From Gemmatimonadales bacterium (GTDB taxonomy: Bacteria > Gemmatimonadota > Gemmatimonadetes > Gemmatimonadales > GWC2-71-9), in the NCBI GenBank assembly GCA_035688895.1, contig DASSML010000079.1, positions 1 to 35,498 on the forward strand: 35,498 nucleotides of DNA, read 5' to 3'. Positions 1-19,109 of the stretch are shown here, one piece after another. Each line of letters opens with the position of its first letter. The first letter of the stretch is position 1. Under the pieces are notes generated by a model. The model did no database searches. It had not been told where the DNA came from and worked only from the letters and a program-made list of their open reading frames with translations. A program made the translations under genes and the position numbers.

Positions 1-533
1 GCGCGGTCGACCGAGAAGATGATGTCGAAGCTGGGAATCTTCTTCTCGATCAGACTCCACTCATCCACCCGGCGAGCGCCCTCGAGCAGCAGGAACTCGG
101 GATTGATCCGGACCAGGAGATCCTCCCGCTCCGGGCGGACGCCGGCCTCGAAGTTGAACGTCCCCGAGCTCCAGGTGAACAGGTAGTAGACCGCCTCCTC
201 GATCTGGTGCCGGACCCACTGCTCCAGCTCGGGACGCGCGATCGCTCCCTGCTCCACCAGGATCTCGCCCAGTTTGTGCTCCCGATCGTCGCGCTGCTGC
301 TCGATCGCGGCGGTGAGCTGCTCCGGTGTGATCCGGCCGCTCGCCACCATGATGTCGCCCAGGCGATCCCGGCGATTGACGATGGCGGCGAAGACGATGT
401 GCCCTTCGTCGAAATAGATGGTGCCGAAGTTGTGTCGATCGGCGAGCGCGAGACAGCCGGTGCGGCGACCCAGAAACAGCAGCTGGATCACGTCCGGAAG
501 GCTGGCTTCCTTGAGGCTGCCCTTGATCGCCAT
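1..533 (-). CDS. PATAN/DUF4388-domain protein, N-terminal ~177 aa (C-terminus lies beyond the window start)
   Basis: There is no stop in the window, so this ORF is absent from the track. Reverse-strand translation from ATG 533..531 reads MAIKGSLKEASLPDVIQLLFLGRRTGCLALADRHNFGTIYFDEGHIVFAA...GRITPEQLTAAIEQQ...GEILVEQGAIARPELEQWV...YYLFTWSSGTFNFEAG...LLLEGARRVDEW. This is colinear with the N-terminus of the 4854..5903 protein (LKELHIQDVFQLLDLGRKSGVLRV...GKITPEQLERA...FELLGWTEGYFRFEEG...LLMEAARRLDEW), the PATAN/DUF4388 pattern. The ATG overlaps the upstream TGA by 1 nt (TGATG at 531-535). Confidence 0.8.
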   Translation of the reverse strand, partial: MAIKGSLKEASLPDVIQLLFLGRRTGCLALADRHNFGTIYFDEGHIVFAAIVNRRDRLGDIMVASGRITPEQLTAAIEQQRDDREHKLGEILVEQGAIARPELEQWVRHQIEEAVYYLFTWSSGTFNFEAGVRPEREDLLVRINPEFLLLEGARRVDEWSLIEKKIPSFDIIFSVDR

Positions 534-2554
534 CAGCGCCACTCCTCCAGCAGGCGGTCGCCGATCTCGGGCCACTCCCACACGGTCTTCTCGCGGCTGC
601 GGGCGCCCCCGGCCGTAGGCGCGACGATCCCGCTGGACCGGCCCGGCCCGGACTTGCGCGGCGGTGGCGATGGCATGACTCCGTCGAGCACTTCGCGCGC
701 CAGCGCGGCCGTGGCGGGCTGCCCCCGGGCCTCCGCGGCGTTAAGGACCCGCTGTACCTGCGCCACGACGACGCGGACGGAGTCGGCAGGTCGGGAGGCG
801 AGATAGGTCGCGAGCTCGGGTTCGATCGTGCCCGGGCGGACCGAAAGCGTCTTCGCGACGACGACTTCCCGGACTTCGGGATCGGGCGCCGGAAGCTCGA
901 CCACCAGCCCGCCCTCCAGGCGGGTGCGGAGCCGCGGTTCCAGCCCTGCGATGGCCGCGGGCGCCGCAGCCGAGGTAAAGACGAGCTGGCGGCCCGACTC
1001 GACCAGAAGGTTGAAGAGGAGGAAGAGCTCTTCCTGGGTCCGGTCCTTCTCGCCGATGAGGTGCACGTCGTCCAGCAGCAGGGCGGTGCAGCGACGGTAG
1101 CGCTGTCGCCAGGCGCCCACCGTGTCGCGGTCGATCGCGTCGATCAGCTCGGCGGTGAACTCGGGCGCGCTGAGACAGGCCACCGGGCCGGTGCAGCGCT
1201 GCGCGAGCTGGTTGCCGATCGCATGGAGAAGGTGGGTCTTGCCCGCCCCGCCCCCGCCGACCAGGACGAGCGGGTTGTACCGCGCACCGGGTTCCTCGGC
1301 AACGACCCGCGCCGCCTGCAGGGCCACCCGGGCGCTCGATCCTTCGATGAGATCGGCCAGCTGCCAGATCGGAGAGGGCGCCGGTGGAGGCACCGCACCG
1401 TTCCGGGCCCGCAGCAGCAACGCCTCCGCCGAGGGAATGTCGGCAGGGTCGCGGAATGCCGGCGAGCCGGCCAGCTCCGGCGCCAGGTCCGCTGCCTCGG
1501 CCTCCATGGCCCTGAGCCGCTCCACGTCGCGCTCGAACCCGTGGACCGCCAGGTCCGCGTCGGGGGCCACCTCCGCGTCGAGCAACGCCTCGAGCCGACC
1601 GGTCCGATACCCTTCGCCCTGCCAGCGCAGGATGGCGGCGCCGATCTGGGCCCGCCACGCGTCCACCTGTTGAGCGACGGTGGCGTGGATCTCACTCAGA
1701 AAATCGGAAAACTCGTCCTTGTCGGCATTAGTGCGCTGGGACGGTACGGCGGCAGAGACGGCCGGCTCTGGCTCACTCGGCGCGCTCACGATCGCAGGCT
1801 CGGCGTCTCCGCTCGTGCCGCCGTCCAGCCGAACGGCCGTACCGCCGATGAGCTCCCGCGCTTCGGCCGGCGACATCGGGGCGTTACCCACCGCCTGGTG
1901 AGCGATCATCCGGTTGAGCGCGCCGAGCAGCTCGCGGACGTTGTCGATGTTGAGCCCGGCGACGGCCTCGAGCACCCCTTCGGCGAAGACCGCCCGGCGC
2001 TCCTCCGCCTTCCGCCGGAGGATGGCCACCCGGGTCTCGTAGTCCGGAGCGGCGACGTCGATAATGAGGCCGCCGGCGAAGCGCCGGATGAGCCGCTCGT
2101 CGAGGGCCTCGATCTCCGCGGGCGGCCGGTCACTGGTGAGCACGATCTGCCGATTCGCCGTCTGCAGCGCGTCGGTGAGGCGGAGCAGCTCGGCCTGCAT
2201 CTCCCGACGGTGGGTGAGGAACTGTACGTCATCGACGAGGAGGAGATCCACGTCGAGGAACCGCTTGCGATAGGCCTCGCCCTGACCCGCGGCGATGGCG
2301 GCGTGGAAGGCCTCGACGAACTCGTCGAGCGTGAGATACTCCACCGCGAGCCGCGGATTGATGGCCCGGGCGGCGTGTCCCACGCCCATCAGGAGGTGGG
2401 TCTTGCCCAGCCCCGGTCGGGCGTAGATGAACAGCGGGTTGTACACCGTGCCCGGGGCCTCGGCCACCGCCTTGGCGGCGGTGACCGCCAGGCGGTTGGC
2501 CGCTCCGACCACGAAGGTCTCGAAGCGGTAGAGGGGGTTGAGGGTGACCGTCAC
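533..2554 (-). CDS. Tandem DnaA-domain-III (Hda-like x2) AAA+ ATPase, 673 aa, without DnaA domains I/II or DNA-binding domain IV
   Basis: This is the internal GTG-started part of track ORF 533..3601. The GTG at 2554..2552 overlaps the mglA TGA (GTGA). Module 1 has LNPLYRFETFVVG, Walker A RPGLGKTHLL, Walker B LLLVDDVQF, sensor-1 VLTSDRPP, box VII DERLIRRFAGGL and NVRELLGALNRM. Module 2 has Walker A GGGGAGKTHLL, Walker B ALLLDDVHL, VFTSAAAP, EPRLRTRLEGGL and SVRVVVAQVQRVL. A helical linker of about 170 aa separates the modules. The C-terminal tail is Pro-rich and ends WEWPEIGDRLLEEWR. I see no DnaA domain IV helix-turn-helix signature. Confidence 0.8.
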   Translation of the reverse strand: MTVTLNPLYRFETFVVGAANRLAVTAAKAVAEAPGTVYNPLFIYARPGLGKTHLLMGVGHAARAINPRLAVEYLTLDEFVEAFHAAIAAGQGEAYRKRFLDVDLLLVDDVQFLTHRREMQAELLRLTDALQTANRQIVLTSDRPPAEIEALDERLIRRFAGGLIIDVAAPDYETRVAILRRKAEERRAVFAEGVLEAVAGLNIDNVRELLGALNRMIAHQAVGNAPMSPAEARELIGGTAVRLDGGTSGDAEPAIVSAPSEPEPAVSAAVPSQRTNADKDEFSDFLSEIHATVAQQVDAWRAQIGAAILRWQGEGYRTGRLEALLDAEVAPDADLAVHGFERDVERLRAMEAEAADLAPELAGSPAFRDPADIPSAEALLLRARNGAVPPPAPSPIWQLADLIEGSSARVALQAARVVAEEPGARYNPLVLVGGGGAGKTHLLHAIGNQLAQRCTGPVACLSAPEFTAELIDAIDRDTVGAWRQRYRRCTALLLDDVHLIGEKDRTQEELFLLFNLLVESGRQLVFTSAAAPAAIAGLEPRLRTRLEGGLVVELPAPDPEVREVVVAKTLSVRPGTIEPELATYLASRPADSVRVVVAQVQRVLNAAEARGQPATAALAREVLDGVMPSPPPRKSGPGRSSGIVAPTAGGARSREKTVWEWPEIGDRLLEEWR

Positions 2555-3153
2555 GCGACCGGCGTCCCCGCCGCGAGGCGCTTGAGCACCATCTCCGAGA
2601 TACCCCGCAGGGTCTCGAACACCCCCGTGCCGTGCAGCGAGTCGGCGCCGAAACTGGGGACCGCCCGGAAATTGAGGGCGTCGTCCATTTCGGCCGGGGC
2701 GAGGATGAGGTCGCTCGGCAGATCCTGCTTGTTGTATTGGAACACCACCGGCAGCTGCCGGACATCCACCCCTTCGCTCAACAGGTTGTCCTGCAGGTTC
2801 TGCAGGCTCTCGAGGTTGTCGTCGAAGCGGCGAGCCTGGCTGTCGGCCACGAACACCACACCGTCGGCGCCCTGGAGCACCAGCTTGCGGGTGGCGTTGT
2901 AGTAGCTCTGCCCGGGTACCGTGTAGAGCTGGAACTTGGTGGTGAACCCCGAGATGCTGCCCAGCTCGAGGGGGAGGAAATCGAAGAAGAGCGTGCGATC
3001 GGTCTGAGTCGCGAGCGAGACCATCCGTCCCCGTCGAGTCTCCGGCACGCGGCCATAGACGTACTGCAGGTTGGTCGTCTTTCCGGACCGTCCGGGCCCG
3101 TAGTAGACGATCTTGCAGGTAATCTCGCGCGCGGTGAAGTTGACCAGGGACAT
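2551..3153 (-). CDS. mglA: MglA, Ras-like small GTPase of the motility/polarity type
   Basis: The 200-aa ORF reads MSLVNFTAREITCKIVYYGPGRSGKTTNLQYVY...TDRTLFFDFLPLELG...LYTVPGQSYYNATRKLVLQGADGVVFVADSQ...FQYNKQDLP. It aligns along its whole length with Myxococcus xanthus MglA (P-loop GPGxxGKTT, TDRTLFFDF switch I with the intrinsic Arg, VPGQ, NKxD). ATG at 3153. Confidence 0.95.
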   Translation of the reverse strand: MSLVNFTAREITCKIVYYGPGRSGKTTNLQYVYGRVPETRRGRMVSLATQTDRTLFFDFLPLELGSISGFTTKFQLYTVPGQSYYNATRKLVLQGADGVVFVADSQARRFDDNLESLQNLQDNLLSEGVDVRQLPVVFQYNKQDLPSDLILAPAEMDDALNFRAVPSFGADSLHGTGVFETLRGISEMVLKRLAAGTPVA

Positions 3154-3156
3154 CGG

Positions 3157-3618
3157 CTACCGTCCGAAGAGCGCTTTGAGACTGGCATTGAGCTCGTGCT
3201 CGAAGTTCTCGGCCAGGGTCGGCCTCGCCGCCGCTTCGCGCGGCGCCACGGCCTCGAGCTCGCTCACCATCCGATTGAAGAACAGCTGCACGATCCCCAC
3301 CGAGGTCTCCGGCCCGAACACCACCAGCCCGATCCAACGGCCCCGCGGCGTGGCGAAGACGGAGAGCAGGCAGCTCTGCCGGGCCCCGTGATGTACCAGC
3401 GCCTCGAACCGGGTTCCTCCCATCAGCCGAGCCATCTCCTCGGTCGAGGCGACGATTCCGGCACCCAGTGCGGCCGCGGTCATGACATCGAGCGACCGGG
3501 CGAAGCCGTGCTGCGCGACGACCTGGCCCGAGGAGGTCATCAGCAGCGTGAGACGCGCCGCCGATTCGTCGAGAAAGGCCTGCAGCGGAAGCTCCACCCA
3601 TGGCTCGAGCGCGCGCAT
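3157..3618 (-). CDS. mglB: MglB, Roadblock/LC7-fold GTPase-activating protein (GAP) for MglA
   Basis: This 153-aa ORF lies immediately upstream of mglA (3-nt gap). The Roadblock core is LTLLMTSSGQVVAQHG...VMTAAALGAGIVASTEEMARLMGG..FEALVHHGARQSCLLSVF...IGLVVFGPETSVGIVQLFFNRMVSEL. The C-terminal extension ends NASLKALFGR, like the MglB Ct-helix. The ATG overlaps the upstream stop by 1 nt (TGATG at 3616-3620). Confidence 0.88.
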   Translation of the reverse strand: MRALEPWVELPLQAFLDESAARLTLLMTSSGQVVAQHGFARSLDVMTAAALGAGIVASTEEMARLMGGTRFEALVHHGARQSCLLSVFATPRGRWIGLVVFGPETSVGIVQLFFNRMVSELEAVAPREAAARPTLAENFEHELNASLKALFGR

Positions 3619-3965
3619 CAGCCGAGGCGTCCCGCGGCGTCGAGCATCTCGAGCCGCGCCAGGCCGATGTTGGCGTCCGGCCCCACGACCGCCACCAGTA
3701 CCAGATCGTTCGGCGCCGGCGCCGCGAGCAACGACCCCTGCTCCGCCCGCAGATGGACGAAGAGCGGCGATTCCAATCCAGCCGCGCCCGTGGTGCGGAG
3801 CAGCCGCCCCACCAGCGCCCCCGCGAGCGCCGCCGCGGCCCGACCGTCGACCCCGTCCATCAGCTGCTCGGCCACGACCAGCCCGTCACCGGCCGAGGCG
3901 AGCAGCGCGCCGCGCACGCCGGGCACCCGGGTGACCCGGTCCAGCACCATGGTCTCGGGGGTCAT
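3618..3965 (-). CDS. Stand-alone Roadblock/LC7-domain protein (MglC-like paralogue)
   Basis: The 115-aa ORF reads LDRVTRVPGVRGALLASAGDGLVVAEQL.GVDGRAAAALAGALVGRLLRTT...SPLFVHLRAEQGSLLAAPAPNDLVLVAVVGPDANIGLARLEM, a typical Roadblock pattern. It has an ATGA overlap with the upstream gene. Confidence 0.8.
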   Translation of the reverse strand: MTPETMVLDRVTRVPGVRGALLASAGDGLVVAEQLMDGVDGRAAAALAGALVGRLLRTTGAAGLESPLFVHLRAEQGSLLAAPAPNDLVLVAVVGPDANIGLARLEMLDAAGRLG

Positions 3966-4861
3966 GAGCCCCGCTCCAGCCAGCGGCGGGCGACTCGCGC
4001 GGCCCGCTCGGCCAGCAGACCCAGGCGAGCCATGGGCATCGATGGCTCCCGCGACGCCAGCAGGACGGTTTCCCCGCTCGGCGGCACCAGGACCAGGAAC
4101 GCGGCCGGAGTCTCGATGGCGATCGAGTGCCAGCTGCCGAGCCCGAGGAGCCGGGAAGCGCGGCCCGCCTCGCGCACGACTCCGCCGAGCTCCGCGGCAA
4201 CGCGGTCTCCCGCATCGCCACCGCCGGGCGCCGCGAGCGTGCCACCCAGGCGGAGGCCGTTCGCGTCGGCCAGGAGGAGGCCGCGCTCTCCGTCGCTGAA
4301 ATCGGCGAACGGTGAATCGGCCGAGGCGACCGGTGCCGGCTGCACGGCCGGAGGAACGGGTGTCGGGGCCTCCGCCGGCGCACTGGGCGCTGCCAGGGGA
4401 GCCATCGAGACCAAGCCCTGCGGAGCCGGCGGTCCCGCCTCGGGCGGTTCGCCCTGCCCCGCGATTGTGCGCTCCATCCGTGCGATCGCCGCCGGAATCG
4501 TGACATCGTCGGGATCGGCCTCCGCGGCGCGGGCGAGGTGCTCCAGCGCCGCCGGTACGTCGCCCGCGCGGAAGTAGAGGAAGGCGAGCCCCTTCAGCGC
4601 GCTGCTTCGCAGGGGATCGAGGCGGAGGGCGTCGGCCCAGGCGTCGAAGGCGCCGGCCAGGTCGCCCTGATCGCTCAGGATCCGCGCGACCAGGTCGTGG
4701 GCGTCGGCCAGCCCCGGGTAGCGGGACAAGCCGCCGCGCGCCACCTTGGCCGCCGCCTCGTACTGCCCCCGCCGCCGCAGAGCCTCGCCCAGCTCGAGAA
4801 AGGCGAGGCTGGTCGGCTCGTCGGCGAGGCGGGCGGTCAGGGCGCGGATGTCGTCACTCAC
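3962..4861 (-). CDS. TPR - Pro/Ala-rich linker - Roadblock/LC7 fusion protein
   Basis: A 299-aa ORF with a GTG start at 4861. The N-terminal ~125 aa are TPR-like (GEALRRRGQYEAAAKVARGGLSRYPGLADAHDLVARILSDQGDLAGAFDAWADALRLDP...GLAFLYFRAGDVPAALEHLARAAEADP). The linker is PPEAGPPAPQ...PTPVPPAVQPAP. The C-terminal ~110 aa are Roadblock-like (GLLLADANGLRLGG...AAELGGVVREAGRASRLLGLGSWHSIAIETPAAFLVLVPPSGETVLLASREPSMPMARLGLL). Confidence 0.75.
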   Translation of the reverse strand: MSDDIRALTARLADEPTSLAFLELGEALRRRGQYEAAAKVARGGLSRYPGLADAHDLVARILSDQGDLAGAFDAWADALRLDPLRSSALKGLAFLYFRAGDVPAALEHLARAAEADPDDVTIPAAIARMERTIAGQGEPPEAGPPAPQGLVSMAPLAAPSAPAEAPTPVPPAVQPAPVASADSPFADFSDGERGLLLADANGLRLGGTLAAPGGGDAGDRVAAELGGVVREAGRASRLLGLGSWHSIAIETPAAFLVLVPPSGETVLLASREPSMPMARLGLLAERAARVARRWLERGS

Positions 4862-5903
4862 GGTGACGCTCCAGCTCCCGCACCAGCGTGTGCACCGCCT
4901 GTCGCATCCGTTCCACCGACGTCTCCTCCGCCTCTTCCCCCGGCGCGCGGGGACCGAACCGGCTCCACGCGGCCCAGGACTCGAGCGCCCGGTCGAACCG
5001 GCCCATGGCCGCCTGGCACATGCCGAGCATCCGCCGCGCCTCGGGCATGAGCGGGTCCTGGCGCAGGACCTCCTCCAGCGCGCCGGCGGCGATTTCGTAC
5101 TCTCCCTGCGCGAGCGCCTCTCGGGCAGGGACCAGGAGCGCGGCCGGGTCGCGCCCGGTCTCCGGCTCGACGCCCGGCTGCGCGGGATCGCTCAGCACCA
5201 GCACCCCCGCCGTCGTGAGCCCGTACACCGTGCGCGCGACCTCGAACTCGGATCGGCCGAGGGCGTGCGCCAGCGCGTGGAGATCGCGCTCGCCGTCGAC
5301 CGCGGCCAGGACCTCCCATTCGAACGGGACCAGATCGAGCGGTGAGCCGGCGAGATCCTCGCTGGATGGCAGCCGGGGCACCAACCCGAGGTGCGCCACC
5401 GTCGAACCGATCCGGGACCACTCGTCCAGCCGTCGCGCCGCTTCCATCAGCAATGCTTCGGTGGGAAACCGGACCGGAGACTCCACCGCGGCGTGCCCTG
5501 GCGCTCCCTCCTCGAACCGGAAGTACCCCTCGGTCCAGCCGAGCAGCTCGAACACCGTCTCCTCGACCTGACCCTTGAGTTGTCGCTCGAGCTGCCGTCG
5601 ACCGATCGCGCCGAGGTCCACCAGGATGTCGCCCAGCCGGCGGGCATCGCCGGTGTTCTGCAGGTGCCGGGCGCGCTCGAGCTGCTCGGGCGTGATCTTG
5701 CCGTGCCGCACCAGGCGGGAGCCGATCGGCTGGTCGTCGCTCCCGAGCGAGGCCGCAACGACGCCGCCCCGGTCGAAGGAGACCGTCGCGGCGGCCTGGC
5801 GCAGCTCCGACGTCACCCGCAGCACCCCACTCTTCCGGCCGAGGTCGAGCAGCTGGAAGACGTCCTGGATGTGCAGCTCCTTGAGCGGACCTTCGAGCGC
5901 CAC
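4854..5903 (-). CDS. PATAN/DUF4388-domain protein with C-terminal TPR region
   Basis: A 349-aa ORF with a GTG start at 5903. The N-terminus is MALEGPLKELHIQDVFQLLDLGRKSGVLRVTS...FDRGGVVAA...GKITPEQLERARHLQ...LGDILVDLGAI...FELLGWTEGYFRFEEG (PATAN with its helical insert). The middle region FEWEVLAAVDGERDLHALAHALGRSEFEVARTVYGLTTAGVL looks like a winged helix. The C-terminus is TPR-like (AREALAQGEYEIAAGALEEVLRQDPLMPEARRMLGMCQAAMGRFDRALESW). Confidence 0.85.
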   Translation of the reverse strand: MALEGPLKELHIQDVFQLLDLGRKSGVLRVTSELRQAAATVSFDRGGVVAASLGSDDQPIGSRLVRHGKITPEQLERARHLQNTGDARRLGDILVDLGAIGRRQLERQLKGQVEETVFELLGWTEGYFRFEEGAPGHAAVESPVRFPTEALLMEAARRLDEWSRIGSTVAHLGLVPRLPSSEDLAGSPLDLVPFEWEVLAAVDGERDLHALAHALGRSEFEVARTVYGLTTAGVLVLSDPAQPGVEPETGRDPAALLVPAREALAQGEYEIAAGALEEVLRQDPLMPEARRMLGMCQAAMGRFDRALESWAAWSRFGPRAPGEEAEETSVERMRQAVHTLVRELERHRE

Positions 5904-5906
5904 CGG

Positions 5907-8597
5907 TCACCCCGCCGAGGCAGCGAAGATGTGCTGGAGGTCCCGGGCGCTGCGCGCGCGACTCCGGGCCTGCGCCGCGTAGGGGCCGCCGGGATCGAGC
6001 TGCACCACCCGCTCCCAGGCCGCGACCGCGCGGTCGTACTGCCGCTGGCGCGCCAATGCGGCGCCCTGGTGGTACAGGGCGCCCGCGTGCTCCGGGTCGA
6101 AGCGAAGCACCCGGGCGAAGGCCTCGAGCGCTTGCGTGGTACGGCCTTCCTCGAGCAGGGTGGCGCCGAGTGCGGTGAGAGCCTCCAGATCGTAGGGGTC
6201 GGACTCCAGCAGGCGGATGAGCACGCCGATCGCGCGGGTCGGGCCGTCGGTGCGGCGCAGCAGGTCGGCCAGCGCCAGCGCGGCGGCGGAGTAGGTCGGG
6301 AGCAGATCGAGGGCCCGCTCGTAGGCGGCGCGCGCCGAAGTCGCGTTGCCGCGCTCTTCCTCCAGCCCTCCCAGCTCGAACCAGACCCGGACCAGCGAGG
6401 GGTCGAGCTGCAGCGCGGCGTTGAATGCGGCAAGCGCGGCCGAGCGATCGCCCAGGCGGGATGAGACCTGGGCCTGGAGGTGGAAGAGGTCGGGGCGGCC
6501 GGGCGCGAGCACCTGGGCCTCCCGGATGCAGTCGAGCGCGCCGAGCGCGTCACCCACCGCCAGCCGCACCCGCGCCCGGGCGACCAGTACCTCGACGTCG
6601 CCCCGCACCCGCAAGGCCAGCTCGTCGGCGAGCGGCGCGGCGTCGCCGGCCCAGCCCAGCGCCAGGAGTGCCCGGATCTCGCCCAGGGTGGCGTCCGGAT
6701 CGTCGGGTGCGGCGGCCCGCGCCTCGCGGTAGCGCTCGAGCGCCTCCCCGTAAAGGCCACGCTTGGCGAAGATGTCGCCCAGCAGCACCGCGGTCGTGCT
6801 GCGCGGTGCGCCCCGTCCCCCGGCCCGGCTCAGCTCGGCCATGGCCAGGTCGAGGAGTCCCTTGGCGATGTAGTCGCGGGCGAGATCGAGCGCGTCGCCC
6901 GGCGCCGCCGCCGGAGCCCCGGCCGGCGCCGGGGGCGCCAGCTCCTCGAACAGACGATCGAGCACCGGTGCGTCGAAGCTGAACTCGCCGGCCAGGTCCT
7001 CGCCCGTGCTCTCCGCCGAGAGCTCGGGCGCGATGGCGATGGTCGGGTCTTCGTACTGCAGATCGATCGTGAGCGAGAACTTCTGGGGCACGTAGAGCGG
7101 CTCGAGCTCCAGCGCGCGCCGGGTCTCCCGCAGGGCGGCGTCGAAGTCGCCGAGCTGGCTCAGCACGAAGCTCAGGTTGTAATGGGCGGCCGCGAAGGCG
7201 GGGTCGGCATCTACCGCCCGACCGAAGGCGTTGCGGGCATCCTCATAGCGCCGGAGCTCCATGAGGACCAGGCCCACGCCGTTCCAGGCCACGGCGCTGC
7301 CCTGCTGCTCGGTGAGCGCCTGCTGATACTCGCCGAGCGCCGAGCGGAACTGCCGCCGCTGGAAGTAGAGCAGTCCCAGGTTGAGCCGCGCGGCGAAGAG
7401 CGGTCGCTCCCCGGAGATCGCCTCCCGGAACGCCGCTACCGCCGGGTCGGCGCCGGCCTCGTGCGCCCGGGCCACGCCCAGGTTGTTCCAGGCCAGCTGG
7501 TACCCCCGGTCCACCGCCACCGCGTGCTCGTAGGAGTCGACCGCCTCCGCCCGCCGGCCCGCCTGGTGCAGGCAGACGCCGCGCTCGTTCCACAGCTTGG
7601 GGCTATCGGCGTATTCCCGCACCAGTCCGTCGTACAGCTCGAGCGCCGCGCCCAGCTCGCGCCGAAGCAAGTGCACCTCGGCCATGGCCTGGAGGTTGAG
7701 CCGCCGATCCTCGCCGGCCTCGAGCGCGAGGCGGTACTCCCGCAGTGCCTCGTCGTGGTAGCCCTTCTGCCGGAAGGCGAGTCCGAGATTAAAGTGGGCC
7801 AGCGGTGCATCGGGCACCGGCTGGGGCGTCTCGGCGCGGACCGCGTCGCCCGCGTGCTCGCCGGGCCGACCGTCGTAGCGGTCGAGGGCCAGGTTCGCCT
7901 GCGCCCGGGCCAGCGTCGGGTTGAGCGCGATGGCGCGCTTGGTCGCCTCGCGCGCGGCCTCGTGCTGCCCCAAATCGCCGTACACGAAGGCGAGCAGATA
8001 GTGCGCTTCGGCGTAGTCCGGATTCCGGGCGATCGCTTCCTTCAGCTCGGCCAGGGCTGGCTCGTTGAGCCCCCGGTTGTACAGCACCTCGCCGTAGTAG
8101 AAGCGCGCCACCGCGCTCTGGGGATCCTGCCGGCAGGCCCGCTCGAGCCAGGCGCTGGCCTGGTCGAGCTGACCCAGCGCCTTCTCGGCGAGGGCCAGCT
8201 GGACCATGGCCGGAACATCGTGGGGATGCCACGCCAGGAGGGCGTCGAACTCGGCGATCGCTTCGGCGTGACGGCCGAGCGCGGCGTACGAGCGGGCCAG
8301 CTCCCAGCGCCCGTCGCGGTCCTCCGGGCTGAGGCGCACCCGCTCGCGCAGCTCGGTGATGCGCCGGTCGTAGTGCCCGCTCTCCCGGTAGGCGATGTCG
8401 AGGTTGGCCTGGGCCACCTGCATCTTGGGATCGAGCTCGAGCGCCCGGGCAAAGGCGAGTATCGCCTCGTCGGTCAGGCCCTTCTGATAGTAGAGGACGC
8501 CGAGGTTGTTGTGCGCGCCCGCATCGGACGCGTCGATGCGTCGCGCGAAGGAGCGCAACACCGCGAGATCGCGCTCCGACAGCACGGGGGCGGGCAT
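5907..8597 (-). CDS. Large tetratricopeptide-repeat (TPR) protein, 896 aa
   Basis: The 34-aa TPR pattern runs throughout, for example AHNNLGVLYYQKGLTDEAILAFARALELDP, AEAHYLLAFVYGDLGQHEAAREATKRAIALNP and AHFNLGLAFRQKGYHDEALREYRLALEAG. ATG at 8597. Gaps to both neighbours are 3-4 nt. No other domain is recognisable by eye. Confidence 0.9.
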   Translation of the reverse strand: MPAPVLSERDLAVLRSFARRIDASDAGAHNNLGVLYYQKGLTDEAILAFARALELDPKMQVAQANLDIAYRESGHYDRRITELRERVRLSPEDRDGRWELARSYAALGRHAEAIAEFDALLAWHPHDVPAMVQLALAEKALGQLDQASAWLERACRQDPQSAVARFYYGEVLYNRGLNEPALAELKEAIARNPDYAEAHYLLAFVYGDLGQHEAAREATKRAIALNPTLARAQANLALDRYDGRPGEHAGDAVRAETPQPVPDAPLAHFNLGLAFRQKGYHDEALREYRLALEAGEDRRLNLQAMAEVHLLRRELGAALELYDGLVREYADSPKLWNERGVCLHQAGRRAEAVDSYEHAVAVDRGYQLAWNNLGVARAHEAGADPAVAAFREAISGERPLFAARLNLGLLYFQRRQFRSALGEYQQALTEQQGSAVAWNGVGLVLMELRRYEDARNAFGRAVDADPAFAAAHYNLSFVLSQLGDFDAALRETRRALELEPLYVPQKFSLTIDLQYEDPTIAIAPELSAESTGEDLAGEFSFDAPVLDRLFEELAPPAPAGAPAAAPGDALDLARDYIAKGLLDLAMAELSRAGGRGAPRSTTAVLLGDIFAKRGLYGEALERYREARAAAPDDPDATLGEIRALLALGWAGDAAPLADELALRVRGDVEVLVARARVRLAVGDALGALDCIREAQVLAPGRPDLFHLQAQVSSRLGDRSAALAAFNAALQLDPSLVRVWFELGGLEEERGNATSARAAYERALDLLPTYSAAALALADLLRRTDGPTRAIGVLIRLLESDPYDLEALTALGATLLEEGRTTQALEAFARVLRFDPEHAGALYHQGAALARQRQYDRAVAAWERVVQLDPGGPYAAQARSRARSARDLQHIFAASAG

Positions 8598-8601
8598 CGG
8601 C

Positions 8602-9222
8602 TCAGGTCAGGCGAATGGCGTCGAAGATGGCCCGGAGCGAGGGCATGTCGGGCAGGAGCAGGAAATGGCCCATCAGCGGCGCGGCGGTGTTCTCCACCCG
8701 GAACGAGGTCTCCACGCAGAAGACGTAATCGCGGGCATGACCGAAGTTGAGGTAGGCGCTGGTCAGGACCGCCGCGCTCAGGTCCACCACCAGACTGGGG
8801 ACCGAGGGGACCAGCATCATGCCCATGAAATCGCTGAGCGCATTGAGGTACGCGCTGGCGAGGATGTTGCCGGCTTCCTTGAGGCCCGATTGCTCCATGA
8901 TCCCGAACTCCTGGGTGCTCCCGGGCTCGCGGCGCATCAGTATATCACACAGCGCGCGGGCGGAGTCGGCCTGGAACAGGACCAGGGTGCGGCCGGTGAG
9001 ATCGCCCATCATGTGCATCAGGACGGCAGCCATCACCTCGTCGCCACGCCCGACCAGGTCCGTCACGTCCTCCAGCGCCCGCACGTTGACCTCCGGCACG
9101 GCGATCATGATCGTGCGGTTGGTCATCTGCGACAGCGCGGTGGCCGCGTGGCCGGCCCCGATATTGGCGACCTCCCGCAGGGCGTCGAGCTGCAGCTCTT
9201 TCAGCTCCCGGACGTCTTCCAT
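8602..9222 (-). CDS. cheC: CheC-family CheY-P phosphatase
   Basis: A 206-aa ORF. Both CheC active-site motifs (D/S-x3-E-x2-N-x22-P) are intact: DALREVANIGAGHAATALSQMTNRTIMIAVP and SGLKEAGNILASAYLNALSDFMGMMLVPSVP. A GGAGGAG Shine-Dalgarno sequence precedes the ATG at 9222. Confidence 0.9.
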   Translation of the reverse strand: MEDVRELKELQLDALREVANIGAGHAATALSQMTNRTIMIAVPEVNVRALEDVTDLVGRGDEVMAAVLMHMMGDLTGRTLVLFQADSARALCDILMRREPGSTQEFGIMEQSGLKEAGNILASAYLNALSDFMGMMLVPSVPSLVVDLSAAVLTSAYLNFGHARDYVFCVETSFRVENTAAPLMGHFLLLPDMPSLRAIFDAIRLT

Positions 9223-9233
9223 AATTCTCCTCC

Positions 9234-11066
9234 CTACAACAGCGCCGCGGCGTCGAGAATGAGCGCCGGCGCGCCGTCGGCGAGAATCGTCGCTCCACCC
9301 ACGAAGGGCGGCATACCGGTGGGCGCGTCGAACGGCTCGACCACGATGTCCTGCTGACCCGCCAGGGCGTCCACCACGAGCGCCGTCCGACGGTCACCCA
9401 GCTCCAGAATTACGGTGGGCGCGCGCGCAGCCGGCGCCCCGCCGTCTCCCTGCACCAGCTCGCGGAGGTGCACCGTGGGCACCACCTGGTCGCGCACCAG
9501 GAGGGCTTCCCGGTCCCGAACCGAGGTGACGGCGCGGGGATCGAACTCCACCGTCTCCGCCACGTACGCCAGCGGCACGGCGTAGCGCTCGTTGCCGGCC
9601 CGGGCCAGAAGCGCCCGCACGATCGCGAGGGTGAGCGGCACGCGCACGGTGAACGTGGTGCCCCGCCCCAGCTCGCTCCGCACCTCCAGGGTGCCACCCA
9701 GCGCCCGCACCCGGGTCATGGCGACGTCCACTCCGACGCCGCGTCCCGAGACCCCGCTCACGGCCGCCGCGGTGCTGAATCCCGGCCGGGCCAGGACCCG
9801 GAGCAGCAGGTCGTCGGTCAGGGTCTCGGTGCTCGCGTCGGCCAGCCCCTCCCGCTTCGCCTTGGCCAGGATCGCCGCCCGGTCGATACCCTTGCCGTCG
9901 TCGGTCACCCGGAGGGCCACGCTGTTCCGCTCCCGCGCCGCCGAGAGCAGGATGCGCCCTTCCTCTGGCTTGCCCTGGGCCGCCCGGACGTCGGGCCGCT
10001 CGATGCCATGATCGGCCGCGTTCCGGACCAGGTGAAGCAGCGGCTCCCCGATCTCGTCCAGCACCGACCGGTCGAGCTCGATGTCCTCTCCCTCGGCGTC
10101 GAAGCGGATCCGCTTGCCGAGATCGCGGGCCAGGTCGCGGACCAGGCGGGGGAAGCGCTCGAACACCTCGCCCACGGGCGTCATGCGGGCGGCCAGCACC
10201 TCGCCCTGCATCCCCGCCACCAGGCGGGTGACCCGATCGCTCACCTCGGCGAGGTCGGCGTCGCCCGACGCGACGGCCAGCGCGGCCAACCGATTCTTGG
10301 CGACCACCAGCTCGCCGACCTGCTTCATCAGGGCGTCCAGCCGAGCGAGATCCACCCGGATCTGGCGGCCGCGCTCGGCGGTCTCGGCGGCATCGACCGG
10401 ATCGCCGATCGTGACCAGCGCGACCTCCCCGGTGCGTCGGATGATGCGCTCGATGTCACCGTCCGTGGCCAGGGTGGCGAGGCGGAAGCCGAACCGGCCG
10501 TCGAACTCGTCGCGCTCGAACGCCGCTGCCGGTGGCCGGAGGGCGGACACGGCGCCCAGCGGCTCCAGACGGGCCAGGATCAGCGAAGCGCGGGCGCCCC
10601 GCATGACCGCCTCGCGGCGCAAGGTGACTTCCACCGCGCGGGCCCGCGTCGTCTCGGCGGGCCCGATCGCGGTCGCCGCTTCGGTCCCCTGGCCTCCCGC
10701 CACACGGTCGAGCTCCGCCGTGAGCTCCGGGTCGGCAGCGGCATCGGCCCCTCGGGCGGCGTTGTCGACCCCGGTCCCCAGCGCGTCCACCGAGCGGAAG
10801 AGAAGCTGGAAGACGGTGGAGTCGGCGGTCACCCGGCCGCCGCGCAGTGCGTCGAGCAGGTTCTCCAGCCGGTGCGCCAGGTCGGCCACGCCGGCGTAGC
10901 CCATCGTCGCGGCCATGCCTTTTATCGTGTGCACCGCCCGGAACAGTCCGCCCACCGGTGAGCGCGATTCGGGGGCCCGCTCCCACTCGAGCAGGAGCTG
11001 GTTGCACCCGTTCAGGTGCTCCCGGCTCTCGTTGAGAAAGAGCGCGGCGTACTTCGCCAGATCCAC
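9234..11066 (-). CDS. cheA: Chemotaxis histidine kinase CheA (Hpt-dimerisation-HATPase-CheW domains)
   Basis: A 610-aa ORF with a GTG start. P1 is FRAVHTIKGMAATMG and P3 is IRVDLARLDALMKQVGELVV. The HATPase boxes are HLVRNAADHGIE, VTDDGKGID and GVSGRGVGVDV. The C-terminal CheW-like P5 domain is YAVPLAYVAETVEF...IVVEPF. Confidence 0.95.
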   Translation of the reverse strand: MDLAKYAALFLNESREHLNGCNQLLLEWERAPESRSPVGGLFRAVHTIKGMAATMGYAGVADLAHRLENLLDALRGGRVTADSTVFQLLFRSVDALGTGVDNAARGADAAADPELTAELDRVAGGQGTEAATAIGPAETTRARAVEVTLRREAVMRGARASLILARLEPLGAVSALRPPAAAFERDEFDGRFGFRLATLATDGDIERIIRRTGEVALVTIGDPVDAAETAERGRQIRVDLARLDALMKQVGELVVAKNRLAALAVASGDADLAEVSDRVTRLVAGMQGEVLAARMTPVGEVFERFPRLVRDLARDLGKRIRFDAEGEDIELDRSVLDEIGEPLLHLVRNAADHGIERPDVRAAQGKPEEGRILLSAARERNSVALRVTDDGKGIDRAAILAKAKREGLADASTETLTDDLLLRVLARPGFSTAAAVSGVSGRGVGVDVAMTRVRALGGTLEVRSELGRGTTFTVRVPLTLAIVRALLARAGNERYAVPLAYVAETVEFDPRAVTSVRDREALLVRDQVVPTVHLRELVQGDGGAPAARAPTVILELGDRRTALVVDALAGQQDIVVEPFDAPTGMPPFVGGATILADGAPALILDAAALL

Positions 11067-11070
11067 CGGG

Positions 11071-11433
11071 TCAGCCCAGGACCCGCTGGACCGCTTCGAG
11101 CACCCGCGACGGCTGGAACGGCTTGACCACGAAATCCTTGGCCCCCGCCTGGATCGCCTCGACCACGAGGGCCTGCTGCCCCATCGCGCTGCACATGAGG
11201 ATCTTCGCGTCGGGGTCGTTCTTGCAGATCTCCCGCACCGCCTCGATCCCGCCCATGTCGGGCATGACGATGTCCATGGTCACGAGGTCGGGCTTGAGCT
11301 GGCGGAACTTCTCCACCGCCTGGAGCCCGGACTCGGCCTCGCCGACGATCTCGAAGCCGGCCTGGCTGAGGATGTCGCTGATCATGGTGCGCATGAAGAT
11401 GGCGTCGTCGCAGACGAGCACGGTGTGGCTCAC
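11071..11433 (-). CDS. cheY: Single-domain response regulator CheY
   Basis: A 120-aa ORF reading VLVCDDAIFMR...PDLVTMDIVMPDMGG...ILMCSAMG...DFVVKPF. It has a GTG start with a GGAGG Shine-Dalgarno sequence 7 nt upstream. Confidence 0.93.
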   Translation of the reverse strand: MSHTVLVCDDAIFMRTMISDILSQAGFEIVGEAESGLQAVEKFRQLKPDLVTMDIVMPDMGGIEAVREICKNDPDAKILMCSAMGQQALVVEAIQAGAKDFVVKPFQPSRVLEAVQRVLG

Positions 11434-11463
11434 GAGCTAGCCTCCAGAACAGGGAGTGGCCGG

Positions 11464-11913
11464 CTATTGCCCCGCCGAGCCTCCGATGATCGGCGCGAAC
11501 AGCGCGTCGATGTCGAGCAGAATGAAATGCTGGTCGTCGCGCACGCCGACGGCCTTGACCAGCCGAGGGTCTACGCCGGGAAGCTGCGCCCGGGCGGCGA
11601 CCGACCGCTCGGGCACCTCGAGGAAGTCGAGGACCTGTCCGACCGCGAGCCCGTAGCGGCGCTGCCCGACCTGGAGCAGGATGATCGCGCCCTCGTCGTC
11701 GGCCCGGCGGGCCTGGGACAGGAGAACGTGACCGTCGAGGACCGTGAGCAAGGTGCCTCGGACGTTCACCAGTCCTTCCACCGCCTCGGCGACTCCGGGA
11801 ATGCGGGTAGCCGGCAGACGGGGGAGGATCTCCCGCACGATCCCTGCCGGGGCCGCGCAAATCAGCGCACCGATGCGAAAGATGACGGCGTGGAGGGTCG
11901 GGGAGTTAGCCAT
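11464..11913 (-). CDS. cheW: Chemotaxis coupling protein CheW
   Basis: This is the internal ATG (11913..11911) of track ORF 11464..12279. The 149-aa product reads MANSPTLHAVIFRIGALICAAPAGIVREILP...IPGVAEAVEGLVNVRGTLLTVLDG...ILLQVGQRRYGLAVGQVLDFLEVP...ILLDIDALF. The part of the track ORF upstream of this ATG overlaps rluD in another frame. Confidence 0.88.
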   Translation of the reverse strand: MANSPTLHAVIFRIGALICAAPAGIVREILPRLPATRIPGVAEAVEGLVNVRGTLLTVLDGHVLLSQARRADDEGAIILLQVGQRRYGLAVGQVLDFLEVPERSVAARAQLPGVDPRLVKAVGVRDDQHFILLDIDALFAPIIGGSAGQ

Positions 11914-12934
11914 CTCTATTAAAGAAAAGAAGATACCGAAGGGGGTCAGGGCGAGCAACCAGATCTTCGCCAGCGATGACGTGCAATGCACTGCGCAAAT
12001 CGGACGGCCAGTCGGCCTGGAATTCCAGCGGCACGCCGGTAGCGGGATGGCGGAATGCCAGAGCCGCCGCGTGAAGCGCCTGACGAGGGGTCGCGCGCTC
12101 CAGCGCCTCGGCGTCCCGGCGCGCCGCCCCGGACACCCGACGGCTCCCCCCGCCGGTGTAGACCGGATCGCCAACCACGGGGTGGCCGGCGTGCTCGAGG
12201 TGGACCCGGATCTGGTGAGTCCGCCCCGTGTGGAGCTCCAGCCGGAGGAGATCCACCGACCCGAACCGAGCCGCGACATAGGCGTCGGTCCGTGCCGGCC
12301 GACCTGCCGGCTGGACCGACATCCGCTTCCGGTCGCGGGGGTGCCGAGCCAGGGGCGCCTCGATCACGGTGGGGCTCTGGTCCAAATGTCCCCAGGCGAG
12401 GGCCGCGTAGGTGCGCTGGACCCGCCGAGCGGCGATCGCGGCGCCGAGCCGCCGGTGAGCCAGGTCGGTCTTGGCGACGACCATCAGGCCCGAGGTGTCC
12501 CGGTCGAGCCGGTGCACGATGCCCGGGCGTCCGGCGATGCCGCCACCCAGCGCGGTACCCCGGGCCACGAGGGCGTTCACCAGGGTGTCGTCCCAGTGCC
12601 CCGGGGCGGGATGCACCACCAGTCCGGCCGGCTTGTCGAGCACGGCGAGGTGCTCGTCCTCGAAGACGATGGTGAGGGGAATGTGGGCCGGGCGGAGCTC
12701 CCGCACGGGCTGCCGCTCCTCCAGCCGGACCTCGACCGCGTCCCCCCGCTGGAGCGTCTGGCTGGCGCGCCCGGGACGGCCGTTCACCCGGACGGCGCCG
12801 GCCGCGACCAGGCGGGCCGCCTGGGTGCGGGAGAGACTCAATTGGTCGGCGAGATAGCGATCGAGCCGCTCGGTGGCGGCCGTCAGGACGGAGAAGGCGA
12901 TGGTGAGCGCGACGGGAAGCCCCGCCTCGGTCAC
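11906..12934 (-). CDS. rluD: 23S rRNA pseudouridine synthase, RluA/RluD family
   Basis: The GTG at 12934 overlaps the lspA TGA (GTGA). The S4 domain is RLDRYLADQLSLSRTQAARLVAAGAVRVNG and the catalytic motif is HRLDRDTSGLMVVAKT. HTGRTHQIRVHL is also present. The TAA at 11906 overlaps the cheW start by 8 nt. Confidence 0.9.
   Translation of the reverse strand: MTEAGLPVALTIAFSVLTAATERLDRYLADQLSLSRTQAARLVAAGAVRVNGRPGRASQTLQRGDAVEVRLEERQPVRELRPAHIPLTIVFEDEHLAVLDKPAGLVVHPAPGHWDDTLVNALVARGTALGGGIAGRPGIVHRLDRDTSGLMVVAKTDLAHRRLGAAIAARRVQRTYAALAWGHLDQSPTVIEAPLARHPRDRKRMSVQPAGRPARTDAYVAARFGSVDLLRLELHTGRTHQIRVHLEHAGHPVVGDPVYTGGGSRRVSGAARRDAEALERATPRQALHAAALAFRHPATGVPLEFQADWPSDLRSALHVIAGEDLVARPDPLRYLLFFNRDG
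11909..11940 (-). promoter_or_regulatory. AT-rich patch at the rluD 3' end and cheW start; candidate internal promoter or translation-initiation region for the che-mgl block
   Basis: The minus strand reads GGTATCTTCTTTTCTTTAATAGAGATGGCTAA. This is the only strongly AT-rich run for kilobases. The last rluD codons (TAT CTT CTT TTC TTT AAT AGA GAT) break the otherwise GC3-dominated codon usage. TTTAAT/TAATAG lies 4-6 nt before the cheW ATG. Confidence 0.3.
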
Positions 12935-13479
12935 TCCGCGTCGTGTCCCTGGAGCACCGGCGCCGCGGGCGGCTCCGGCTGGCGCACGTCCTCGCGCCAC
13001 ATCGAGACCACGAGCGCGATGGCGCCGCAGCTCACGGCGATGTCGGCCACGTTGAAGGTCGGCCACCGCAGGGCGCCGATGCCGACGTCGAGGAAGTCGA
13101 CCACGCCACGGGTGCTGCGGACCCGGTCGATCAGGTTGCCCGCGGCGCCGCCGGCGACGAGGCCGAGCGCCAGCTGCCGGAACCAGTCGCCGGGAGGACT
13201 GGTACGGGACATCCGCCGCAGGACGACCACGGCCACGATGGCGACCGTGAGGAAGATCCAGCGGGAGTAGGGCCCCAGGTGCAGCCCAAAGGCCGCCCCC
13301 TGGTTGTACACCAGGCGGAGCTGGAACCAATCGCCCAGCACCGCGATGCCCGGGGTCCTGAGAAGTACCGCCTCGGCCACGATCTTGGTGATCAGGTCGA
13401 GCAGGATGACGACGACGGCGGCGATCCAGAAGATCCGCCGCTCCGCCCCGGGCGCCGCTGGATCAGCGGCGCTTTCCAT
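12931..13479 (-). CDS. lspA: Lipoprotein signal peptidase II
   Basis: A 182-aa ORF with LVYNQGAAFG, GGAAGNLIDR, FNVADIAVSCG and four hydrophobic segments. The ATG at 13479 is preceded by a GAGGAAG Shine-Dalgarno sequence. Confidence 0.93.
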   Translation of the reverse strand: MESAADPAAPGAERRIFWIAAVVVILLDLITKIVAEAVLLRTPGIAVLGDWFQLRLVYNQGAAFGLHLGPYSRWIFLTVAIVAVVVLRRMSRTSPPGDWFRQLALGLVAGGAAGNLIDRVRSTRGVVDFLDVGIGALRWPTFNVADIAVSCGAIALVVSMWREDVRQPEPPAAPVLQGHDAE

Positions 13480-13846
13480 CTTCCTCTTTCTCCTTGCAGG
13501 TGATGCACAGGCGCGCGTGCGGCAGGGCGTCGAGTCGCTCGAAGTTGATCTCCTGGCCGCACTGATGGCAATGGCCGAACTTCTCGGGATTGCCGTACAG
13601 CCGGCGCAGTGCCTCGTTCACGTGCCAGAGGTAGCGACCCTCCTGCGAGGCGAAAAGAAACTGCTTCTCCCGCTCCATGGCGTCGGTCCCCTGGTCGGCC
13701 ATGTGGAACGAGTACGACGAGAGATCGCCGTCGGAGGACTGCAGCGTCGCGTTGAACGACTCGTCGTAGTAGCCGAGCTCCTTCATCACCCGGGCTCGCT
13801 CCTCCAGCAGTCGCTTCTCGAGATGTGTCAGCTGCTTCTTGTTCAT
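13463..13846 (-). CDS. DksA/TraR-family C4 zinc-finger protein (YlyA-like position)
   Basis: This is the internal ATG (13846..13844) of track ORF 13463..15118. The 127-aa product reads MNKKQLTHLEKRLLEERARV...HMADQGTDAMEREKQF...FGHCHQCGQEINFERLDALPHARLCITCKEKEE. It has an ATGA overlap with the ileS stop. Confidence 0.88.
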   Translation of the reverse strand: MNKKQLTHLEKRLLEERARVMKELGYYDESFNATLQSSDGDLSSYSFHMADQGTDAMEREKQFLFASQEGRYLWHVNEALRRLYGNPEKFGHCHQCGQEINFERLDALPHARLCITCKEKEEDGKRR

Positions 13847-19062: not shown

Positions 19063-19109
19063 AGCCTTGAAATTTATGCTGATAGGGGCTCGGGAAGTAG
19101 TCTTTGAGC
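19063..19109 (-). promoter_or_regulatory. 47-bp intergenic gap upstream of yggS; possible weak promoter/RBS
   Basis: This is the only real gap in the 27-kb same-strand gene run. The minus strand reads GCTCAAAGACTACTTCCCGAGCCCCTATCAGCATAAATTTCAAGGCT followed by ATG. It contains an AT-rich CATAAATTT and an AAGG just before the ATG. I see no convincing -35 element. Confidence 0.2.

Follow-up and report, generated by a model that had tools for sequence, protein, structure and literature searches.

An 18-gene block of Gemmatimonadota that combines Che proteins with an MglA/MglB module, PATAN and TPR proteins and a tandem DnaA-like ATPase

How a chemosensory pathway might act on a bacterial polarity switch is the question raised by a run of genes at one end of a 35,498-nucleotide stretch of DNA from a Gemmatimonadales bacterium (GenBank assembly GCA_035688895.1, contig DASSML010000079.1, positions 1–35,498; hereafter the window). 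Genes for chemotaxis (Che) proteins stand there on the same strand as genes for the small GTPase MglA, its partner MglB, further Roadblock, TPR and PATAN proteins, and an ATPase with two DnaA-like AAA+ modules. The original prediction, made from the letters of the window, described them as one 12-gene operon joining a Che phosphorelay to an MglA/MglB polarity module, with extra components, in an apparently non-myxobacterial high-GC genome. That combination and that kind of host are supported, the host being a member of the phylum Gemmatimonadota, order Gemmatimonadales. The operon as proposed is not borne out, as the window breaks off two thirds of the way through a block that counts 18 genes. 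In the best explanation of the comparative data, this block has been inherited vertically and, on what was seen, only within Gemmatimonadota, and phosphorylated CheY (CheY-P) most likely gates the MglA switch within it to steer type IV pili.

Extent and conservation of the block

The part of the block lying beyond the window was found on a contig (locus L001) that is 98.6% identical to window positions 1–4802 and extends past the window end. There, the full-length PATAN2 gene is followed by cheR, cheD, cheB, cheW2, cheW3 and the gene of a 294-residue TPR protein (TPR294), and then by a Peptidase_MA_2 gene (PepMA), so that the MglA module has che genes to either side of it. Conservation was followed in a scan with one genome per species, which gave 170 relatives of the tandem ATPase; 80 of the 170 loci were examined by tblastn with all block proteins. 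In every locus that is long enough, the order on one strand is rluD, cheW1, cheY, cheA, cheC, TPR896, PATAN1, TPR-RB, RB, MglB, MglA, ATPase, PATAN2, cheR, cheD, cheB, cheW2, cheW3, TPR294 and PepMA. Among 41 Gemmatimonadota loci spanning the block, 35 are complete, with the 18 genes in this order; the others are without detectable cheW2 (5/41) or without TPR-RB (1/41). Between cheY and TPR294, the median spacing at each junction is at most 16 nt across 52–73 genomes, and the most conserved proteins in the 80 loci are CheY (median identity 92.5%) and MglA (90.5%). Collectively, the comparative data make a functional link between the genes much more likely than adjacency alone would.

Gemmatimonad* titles are carried by all of the 80 loci but one, a 4-kb contig assigned to Solirubrobacterales, probably through a binning error in that metagenome-assembled genome (MAG). 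It agrees with a Gemmatimonadales contig in length (4070 bp) and in match coordinates, the pair being L027 and L028. The tandem ATPase has thousands of homologues, of which the named ones are listed as "DnaA/Hda family protein [Gemmatimonadales bacterium]", and a protein identical to the MglA of the window occurs on soil-type metagenome contigs, some labelled farmland. A chimeric assembly is excluded, the same order being present in more than 40 independent assemblies, with contigs of 0.2–4.6 Mb among them. A recent horizontal island likewise finds no support: GC content is 0.66–0.75 over the whole window, and the position of the block, between rluD and PepMA/rsmH, is always the same.

Within the window, genes were called from open reading frames (ORFs) and third-position GC and then tested against Pfam. 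All 12 minus-strand genes of the original prediction are present with the identities given to them, as judged by Pfam and PDB matches, and their spacing agrees with it as well: the junctions range from −8 to +30 nt (from cheW1 to PATAN2 in order: +30, +4, +11, +4, +3, −8, −4, −1, +3, −4 and −1 nt), and ATGA, GTGA and TGATG overlaps are all seen. The GTG start of the ATPase gene, for example, overlaps the mglA stop (GTGA), and mglB adjoins mglA, 3 nt upstream. A single strand, short or overlapping junctions and the lack of internal terminators above chance are features of an operon, and the genes may be co-transcribed and translationally coupled. In positions 1–14000, three terminator-like sites were found against 3.0 expected from shuffles, which is no excess, and no sigma-70-like promoter was matched; the scan covered the sigma-70 consensus and intrinsic terminators only and is weak evidence for this phylum.

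The tight spacing continues upstream of the block. The cheW1 ATG is placed 8 nt inside the 3′ end of rluD, a housekeeping gene (342 aa, 11906–12934, minus; Pfam S4 and PseudoU_synth_2), and this overlap is invariant in all 46 genomes in which it was measurable. lspA in turn overlaps rluD by 4 nt (GTGA). An apparent gap of 363 nt between ileS and lspA is filled by an ORF for a DksA/TraR-type C4 zinc-finger protein of ~126 aa (...HCHQCGQEINFERLDALPHARLCITC...) at about 13466–13846 (minus), which overlaps lspA by about 14 nt and ileS by ATGA, these coordinates being derived from the translation; locus L088 has a 126-aa zf-dskA_traR gene in the same ileS–lspA position. Because rluD, lspA, the DksA-like ORF and ileS abut as tightly as the block genes do, spacing sets no 5′ boundary. 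Junction tightness does not exceed the local background; conserved gene content does. The only variable gap inside the block is that between cheW1 and cheY (median 42 nt, maximum 271 nt across genomes), and it could house an internal promoter. In a genome of ~71% GC, the 3′-terminal part of rluD immediately ahead of the cheW1 ATG (11913–11945, minus) is markedly AT-rich, TCTTCTTTTCTTTAATAGAG, and could be a translation-initiation or internal promoter element.

On its upstream side, the slot of the block is formed by yggS-divIVA-pnp-ileS-dksA-lspA-rluD (11906–19101, minus), in which DivIVA is encoded at 17861–18514 (minus; Pfam E 1e-28); this arrangement resembles that of Bacillus. On the downstream side, in L007, L088, L090 and L094, PepMA is followed by a small gene of 61–68 aa where called, a TPR protein of ~530–590 aa and rsmH-ftsL-ftsI-murE, with which the division and cell-wall cluster begins. 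The Peptidase_MA_2 gene (L001 10066–10905) lies 3′ of the block in all spanning loci, with a median gap of 38 nt, and it still adjoins ATPase–PATAN2 in locus L092, where the rest of the block is gone; it may belong to the system. Further upstream in the window, in the housekeeping run, the gene of a TMEM260-like protein O-mannosyltransferase (Pfam E 2e-43) adjoins that of a cdaA-type diadenylate cyclase (DAC and CdaA_N; 19110–22315, minus). Two divergent genes encode hybrid histidine kinase-response regulators, one at 27233–30640 (minus; GAF-PAS-HisKA-HATPase-REC) and the other at 30168–32015 (plus; PAS-HisKA-HATPase-REC). Their maximal ORFs overlap by ~470 nt, and the real starts are probably internal.

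Proteins of the block

The product of mglA (200 aa, 2551–3153, minus) aligns over residues 1–196 with MglA of Myxococcus xanthus (PDB 5ymx; E 1.3e-71) at ~63% identity, as counted from the alignment. The P-loop GPGxxGKT, the intrinsic arginine finger TDRT (TDRTLFFDF) and the motif YTVPGQ are all conserved. Group 1 MglA proteins are defined by a G3 motif TVPGQ and an intrinsic arginine finger beside the G2 threonine (Wuichet and Sogaard-Andersen, PMC4316618), and the protein of the block is, by both motifs, a Group 1 MglA small GTPase. A cognate Roadblock-fold MglB is encoded beside it, as in an MglA/MglB module. This protein (153 aa, 3157–3618, minus) matches M. xanthus MglB (PDB 6h5b) with E 4e-10, Thermus thermophilus MglB (PDB 1j3w) with E 6e-8 and the NCBIfam MglB model with E 1e-9, the last below the model's cut-off; judged by these similarities, it is a genuine MglB homologue and is presumed to be the GTPase-activating protein (GAP) of MglA.

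Together with MglB, the block holds three Roadblock proteins. RB, a stand-alone Roadblock/LC7 protein (115 aa, 3618–3965, minus; Pfam Robl_LC7 E 1.6e-9), is a distant paralogue of MglB according to BLASTP (E 6e-4). Its identification as MglC was rejected, as it has no MglC match at E up to 1 and its sole PDB match is 7f8m, a generic Robl_LC7 protein (E 4e-6); BLASTP also returned nothing (E 1.9) for RB as a duplicate of the C-terminus of TPR-RB. The latter (TPR-Roadblock, 299 aa, 3962–4861, minus) matches Pfam TPR families and, below threshold, Robl_LC7 at residues 193–261 (17.5 bits against a cutoff of 23). In its orthologues in L090, L095 and L096, the Robl_LC7 match is not marked as sub-threshold (E at most 1e-5).

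The Che set of the block comprises three CheW proteins, CheA, CheY, CheC, CheD, CheR and CheB. Those encoded in the window, all on the minus strand, are CheW1, whose gene is the first of the conserved block (149 aa, 11464–11913; Pfam CheW E 1.8e-22), the single-domain response regulator CheY (120 aa, 11071–11433; Response_reg E 1.9e-31), CheA with Hpt, P2, H-kinase_dim, HATPase_c and CheW domains (610 aa, 9234–11066), and CheC (206 aa, 8602–9222; Pfam CheC E 1e-21). CheY matches that of Thermotoga maritima (PDB 1tmy) with E 2e-50 and is ~70% identical to it, as counted from the alignment. The best NCBIfam matches of CheA are CheA models, below their cut-offs, and the best model for CheC is CheC_Thtogales (E 4e-50, below its cut-off). 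The Che proteins resemble the Thermotoga/Bacillus type and not Frz. CheC is predicted to be a CheY-P phosphatase, and CheY is presumed to be the phosphorylated output of the pathway. CheY and CheB are the only proteins of the block with a receiver domain. CheR (273 aa) consists of CheR_N and CheR domains only, and TPR proteins are encoded by separate genes in L001 and other loci. No flagellar genes were found in any 20-kb locus, and neither a fliM/FliY-type switch gene nor a gene for the archaellum adaptor CheF lies within 10 kb of the block.

The TPR proteins are TPR896, TPR294 and TPR-RB, besides PATAN1 and PATAN2, which have C-terminal TPR repeats. TPR896, an all-TPR protein of 896 aa (5907–8597, minus; Pfam TPR families), is a candidate scaffold or MglA effector. 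PATAN1 (PATAN/DUF4388-TPR, 349 aa, 4854–5903, minus; Pfam DUF4388 E 3e-33) and PATAN2 (1–533, minus; DUF4388 E 9e-39), whose N-terminal 177 aa lie in the window before its end cuts the gene and whose full length is ~538–541 aa (PATAN-TPR), have no Response_reg match to indicate a receiver domain. In PATAN1, an MshEN-type motif for cyclic di-GMP (c-di-GMP) is found in the helical insertion of the PATAN domain (residues 59–112), with the strict 24-residue motif RLGDILVDLGAIGRRQLERQLKGQ at residue 89. The tandem 24-residue motif of MshEN is defined in PMC5013675; the second half-motif of the PATAN proteins fits the published pattern exactly, and the first half is off at one or two positions, outside the relaxed pattern (regular expression). 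NCBIfam NF053729, the model of an MshE-related c-di-GMP-binding domain (c-di-GMP_motif, cutoff 38 bits), gives 44.9 bits for PATAN1 and 51.1 for the full-length PATAN2 of L001, both above the cutoff. The PATAN2 orthologues of L088 and L092 score 46.4 and 47.6 bits, respectively, and PATAN1 of L088 scores 32 bits, below the cutoff. From these motifs, c-di-GMP is predicted to be a second input, entering via the PATAN proteins. mglA genes are known to neighbour PATAN genes in some genomes (PMC4316618).

The tandem ATPase (673 aa, 533–2554, minus; Pfam Bac_DnaA in two stretches, E 5e-96) consists of an AAA+ module similar to DnaA domain III, a disordered linker (residues 240–280), a helical middle domain (281–386), and a second such AAA+ module with a disordered tail. 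In 77 sequences (the window protein and 76 orthologues), each half retains Walker A and B, and box VII and sensor II are retained, by eye, in the N-terminal module. The N-terminal module is 44% identical to domain III of Bacillus subtilis DnaA. The best stretch of the C-terminal module in the NCBIfam Hda model TIGR03420 covers residues 411–623, below the cut-off. Among PDB entries, 8bv3 is matched with E 2e-55, and the alignments end at the end of domain III. An AlphaFold2 model (pLDDT 84.7) was aligned by Foldseek with DnaA domain III (TMt 0.94); Foldseek returned only DnaA domain III and did not identify the helical middle domain. DnaA domain I and the DNA-binding domain IV are absent from the Pfam results, which contain only Bac_DnaA and generic AAA families. 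Both sequence and model thus indicate an ATPase derived from DnaA domain III. Foldseek matches to p97-type double-ring ATPases have a root-mean-square deviation near 20 Å and are uninformative on the arrangement.

Reduced loci, proposed mechanism and alternatives

An exhaustive profile search retrieved full-length tandem ATPases down to ~35% identity, and their loci occupy the same chromosomal slot with differing che content. Twenty diverged representatives, a non-exhaustive set in which most are without names, gave no sign of the ATPase outside Gemmatimonadota, all named ones being Gemmatimonad*. L096 (ATPase identity 44%) has the full set; L090 (44%) and L095 (41%) are without cheW2 and cheW3; L091 (39%) also lacks cheD and has a shortened cheW1; and L094, on a 4.59-Mb contig (42%), is without cheB, cheW2 and cheW3 and has a CheA without P2. 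In L088/L089 (36%), cheY and cheC are the only che genes left, and everything from TPR896 to TPR294 is otherwise kept; the best conserved proteins of L088 are MglA (74%), CheY (69%) and TPR294 (67%). Only rluD-ATPase-PATAN2-PepMA persists in L092 (36%). In L093 (35%), where the context is unrelated, the gene immediately 5′ of the ATPase homologue encodes a full-length relative of TPR896 (28% identity). ATPase with PATAN2, and ATPase with the large TPR protein, look like sub-units able to stand alone.

The loss pattern in L088 bears directly on the role of CheY. Since cheY and cheC are retained beside the MglA module after cheA, cheW, cheR, cheB and cheD have gone from the locus, they go with the MglA module and not with cheA. 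Such retention is the strongest available argument for CheY as input to the MglA module. As further observations on these loci, L096 carries an extra gene for a 265-aa AAA_16/AAA_22 ATPase between cheB and cheW2 (15934–16731). In L093 (3765–12701; Gemmatimonadetes MAG GCA_003697105.1), the TPR896-like and ATPase genes are followed by the gene of a 200-aa protein without Pfam match; two bactofilin genes lie ~6 kb upstream, and no MglA or che genes are present.

From the gene identities, order, conservation and pattern of loss described above, we infer the following route. A receptor encoded elsewhere would control CheA, which would phosphorylate the single-domain CheY; CheC would reset CheY, and CheR, CheB and CheD would adapt the receptor. 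CheY-P would then act on a complex of MglB, Roadblock and TPR proteins and shift the GTP state or the location of MglA, a step that would parallel the action of FrzX and FrzZ on the MglA/MglB polarity module of Myxococcus. MglA-GTP, together with TPR and PATAN proteins, might decide where the type IV pilus motor is active, with c-di-GMP modulating the PATAN proteins, and the tandem ATPase might serve as an ATP-dependent partner of PATAN2 or of the large TPR protein. The type IV pilus is the likeliest machine because a PATAN domain binds PilB1 and PilC in Synechocystis (bioRxiv 10.1101/2021.06.11.447907), because PATAN proteins are among the SgmX-linked candidates listed in a Myxococcus study, and because of the distribution of pilus and flagellar genes in a survey of more than 400 Gemmatimonadota MAGs, where flagellar genes were reported in only one or two soil genomes and type IV pilus genes in genomes of all environments but the marine one (PMC10581226). 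Taken together, the composition and inheritance of the block and this path from CheY-P through the MglA switch to the type IV pilus form an account that we consider moderately probable. A bolder version is unlikely: a self-contained, phylum-specific polarity controller in which CheY-P directly gates MglA via a three-Roadblock/TPR complex, c-di-GMP enters via the PATAN MshEN motifs, and the ATPase acts as timer or scaffold and might co-assemble with DnaA, tying polarity to the cell cycle.

Several points weigh against steering of pili by CheY-P and MglA. No MCPsignal match, and hence no methyl-accepting chemotaxis protein (MCP), was found among the called genes of the window or in any locus listing with 10-kb flanks, and no pil, glt/agl, romR or romX gene occurs among those called genes or within 10 kb in the locus listings. 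The original prediction placed the downstream motor outside the window, and its statement that the whole input-to-polarity circuit is wired into one unit was overstated, given that the block and its 10-kb surroundings are without an MCP and show no gene like romR or romX. Some lineages do without the che genes, and an MglA/PATAN/ATPase core can therefore function with no kinase linked to it. The tight spacing is the local norm, also among unrelated housekeeping genes, and lends little weight to a functional link or a discrete operon. The expectation of pili in place of flagella comes from the MAG survey, and a role of the ATPase as ATP-dependent scaffold or timer working with PATAN2 and the large TPR protein is a guess.

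A further such point, that CheY is close to a flagellar CheY and that CheC and CheD are typical of flagellar systems, leads to the view that the che genes form an ordinary set for flagellar chemotaxis beside an unrelated MglA/PATAN locus. We regard this as very unlikely. It would account for the CheY match (E 2e-50, ~70% identity to T. maritima CheY), for a Thermotoga CheC model as the best one and for the CheC/CheD/CheR/CheB complement, and some Gemmatimonadota, mainly from freshwater and wastewater, are indeed flagellated (PMC10581226). However, the che genes stand on both sides of the MglA module in an interleaved order that 35 of 41 loci preserve, cheY and cheC remain with this module where cheA, cheW, cheR, cheB and cheD are gone, and no flagellar gene occurs in any 20-kb locus; moreover, exact matches to the MglA come from soil-type metagenomes, and flagellar genes were seen in only one or two soil MAGs (PMC10581226). 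Control of cell-pole identity, of division or budding, or of replication timing instead of motility, with the ATPase as effector or DnaA modulator, is also unlikely. The block always lies between divIVA-pnp-ileS-lspA-rluD and PepMA-TPR-rsmH-ftsL-ftsI-murE, but these flanks are conserved housekeeping genes and the neighbourhood may be meaningless. Gemmatimonas aurantiaca divides by budding, and the ATPase–PATAN2 pair persists in L092 without MglA or che genes; yet Group 1 MglA, PATAN and large TPR partners are tied to pili, gliding or predation in the organisms studied. The N-terminal ATPase module is very close to a genuine DnaA domain III with Walker A and B kept, whereas domains I and IV are missing and an interaction with DnaA is purely conjectural.

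How the genes are transcribed is a separate matter. Several transcription units in place of one, starting in the ileS/lspA/rluD unit or at internal promoters, for example in the cheW1–cheY gap, are a serious possibility, if somewhat short of an even chance, and would be compatible with the gating of MglA by CheY-P; the tight junctions would then reflect general genome compaction. The 8-nt rluD–cheW1 overlap in 46/46 genomes, the lspA–rluD GTGA and the overlaps of the DksA-like ORF with lspA (~14 nt) and ileS (ATGA) speak for such units, as does the cheW1–cheY gap, the sole variable internal junction with a median of 42 nt and up to 271 nt. The failure to find any promoter- or terminator-like site above chance in 1–14000 speaks against them, weakly, as the scan was limited to sigma-70 and intrinsic terminators.

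Comparison with known systems

Chemosensory control of an MglA/MglB switch, in Myxococcus, and the neighbourhood of MglA and PATAN genes are already known. The literature searched holds no description of a che cluster around mglBA, of MshEN in such PATAN proteins, or of a tandem DnaA-like ATPase with MglA. In Myxococcus, the mode of action of the Frz response regulators on this module, including the targets of FrzX/FrzZ, is described as unknown (PMC10329633). The block packs a kinase, one CheY, a phosphatase, MglA, MglB, two more Roadblock proteins and the TPR/PATAN candidates, and so gives a short, testable list of candidate direct CheY-P targets, and its related lineages supply a natural "deletion series"; as a compact system found in nature, it lends itself to the question of how chemosensing reverses the polarity of a bacterium. 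It also suggests inputs and parts outside the Myxococcus model, namely c-di-GMP via the PATAN MshEN motifs and a DnaA-derived tandem ATPase. Abundant and mostly uncultured soil Gemmatimonadota, which are largely non-flagellated (PMC10581226), are thereby implied to have a system for directed surface behaviour, none having been described in the literature searched.

One of the closest known systems is the Frz pathway of M. xanthus with MglA/MglB/MglC/RomR-RomX. In both cases, a CheA/CheW/CheY pathway accompanies a Group 1 MglA and an MglB GAP homologue, with a further Roadblock paralogue (MglC in Myxococcus, RB and TPR-RB in the block), a large TPR protein (SgmX in Myxococcus) and a single-domain response regulator as the likely output (FrzX in Myxococcus). 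Unlike the single block described here, the loci of Myxococcus are scattered, and mglA is not near its signalling partners in Myxococcus or Bdellovibrio (PMC4316618). The CheA of the block has no fused receiver, in contrast to the C-terminal one of the FrzE type; there is no dual-receiver FrzZ, no CheR-TPR fusion (FrzF) and no linked cytoplasmic receptor FrzCD, and CheC and CheD are present. Orthology with Frz was rejected on this architecture, the CheA receiver, FrzZ, CheR-TPR and FrzCD all being missing at the locus. Unlike in the Myxococcus module, no RomR/RomX was seen at the block loci and RB has no MglC sequence match, and the block adds PATAN-MshEN proteins and the tandem DnaA-like ATPase. 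Within the same phylum, GAU_1409 of Gemmatimonas aurantiaca T-27 is listed as PATAN>MglA>-PATAN> (Wuichet and Sogaard-Andersen 2015, Table S2), with PATAN genes around a Group 1 MglA and, between MglA and the second PATAN, an unnamed gene at the position of the ATPase. Compared by this table entry, it differs in the length of its MglA (229 aa) and in having neither an MglB listed at the locus nor any mention of che genes.

In its signalling genes, the block is more like the chemotaxis systems of Thermotoga, Bacillus and archaea (F1-like), with CheC, CheD, CheR, CheB, a CheA with P2 and a CheY near that of T. maritima; this likeness was judged from gene content and CheY similarity. It differs from F1-like systems in that its genes are interleaved with a small-GTPase polarity module and no flagellar or archaellar genes or receptor are linked. 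The cyanobacterial Tax/Pix systems with PatA-type (PATAN-REC) regulators also have PATAN proteins in a chemosensory cluster, where they are likely output adaptors to the type IV pilus motor. The PATAN domains of the block, however, are fused to TPR repeats and not to a receiver, and phosphorylation must therefore reach PATAN indirectly, with the MglA/MglB switch in between. The tandem 24-residue motif that brings PATAN1 and PATAN2 above the NF053729 cut-off is like that of the MshEN domains of MshE/PilB-type ATPases; it lies inside the PATAN helical insertion and not at the N-terminus of a secretion ATPase, and binding is predicted only. Finally, the tandem ATPase is like DnaA (domain III) and Hda in its N-terminal module and in the C-terminal stretch found by the Hda model below its cut-off. 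Unlike them, it has two AAA+ modules in one chain, a helical middle domain and no domain I or IV, and its gene follows mglA. It is the one component of the block without a known counterpart.

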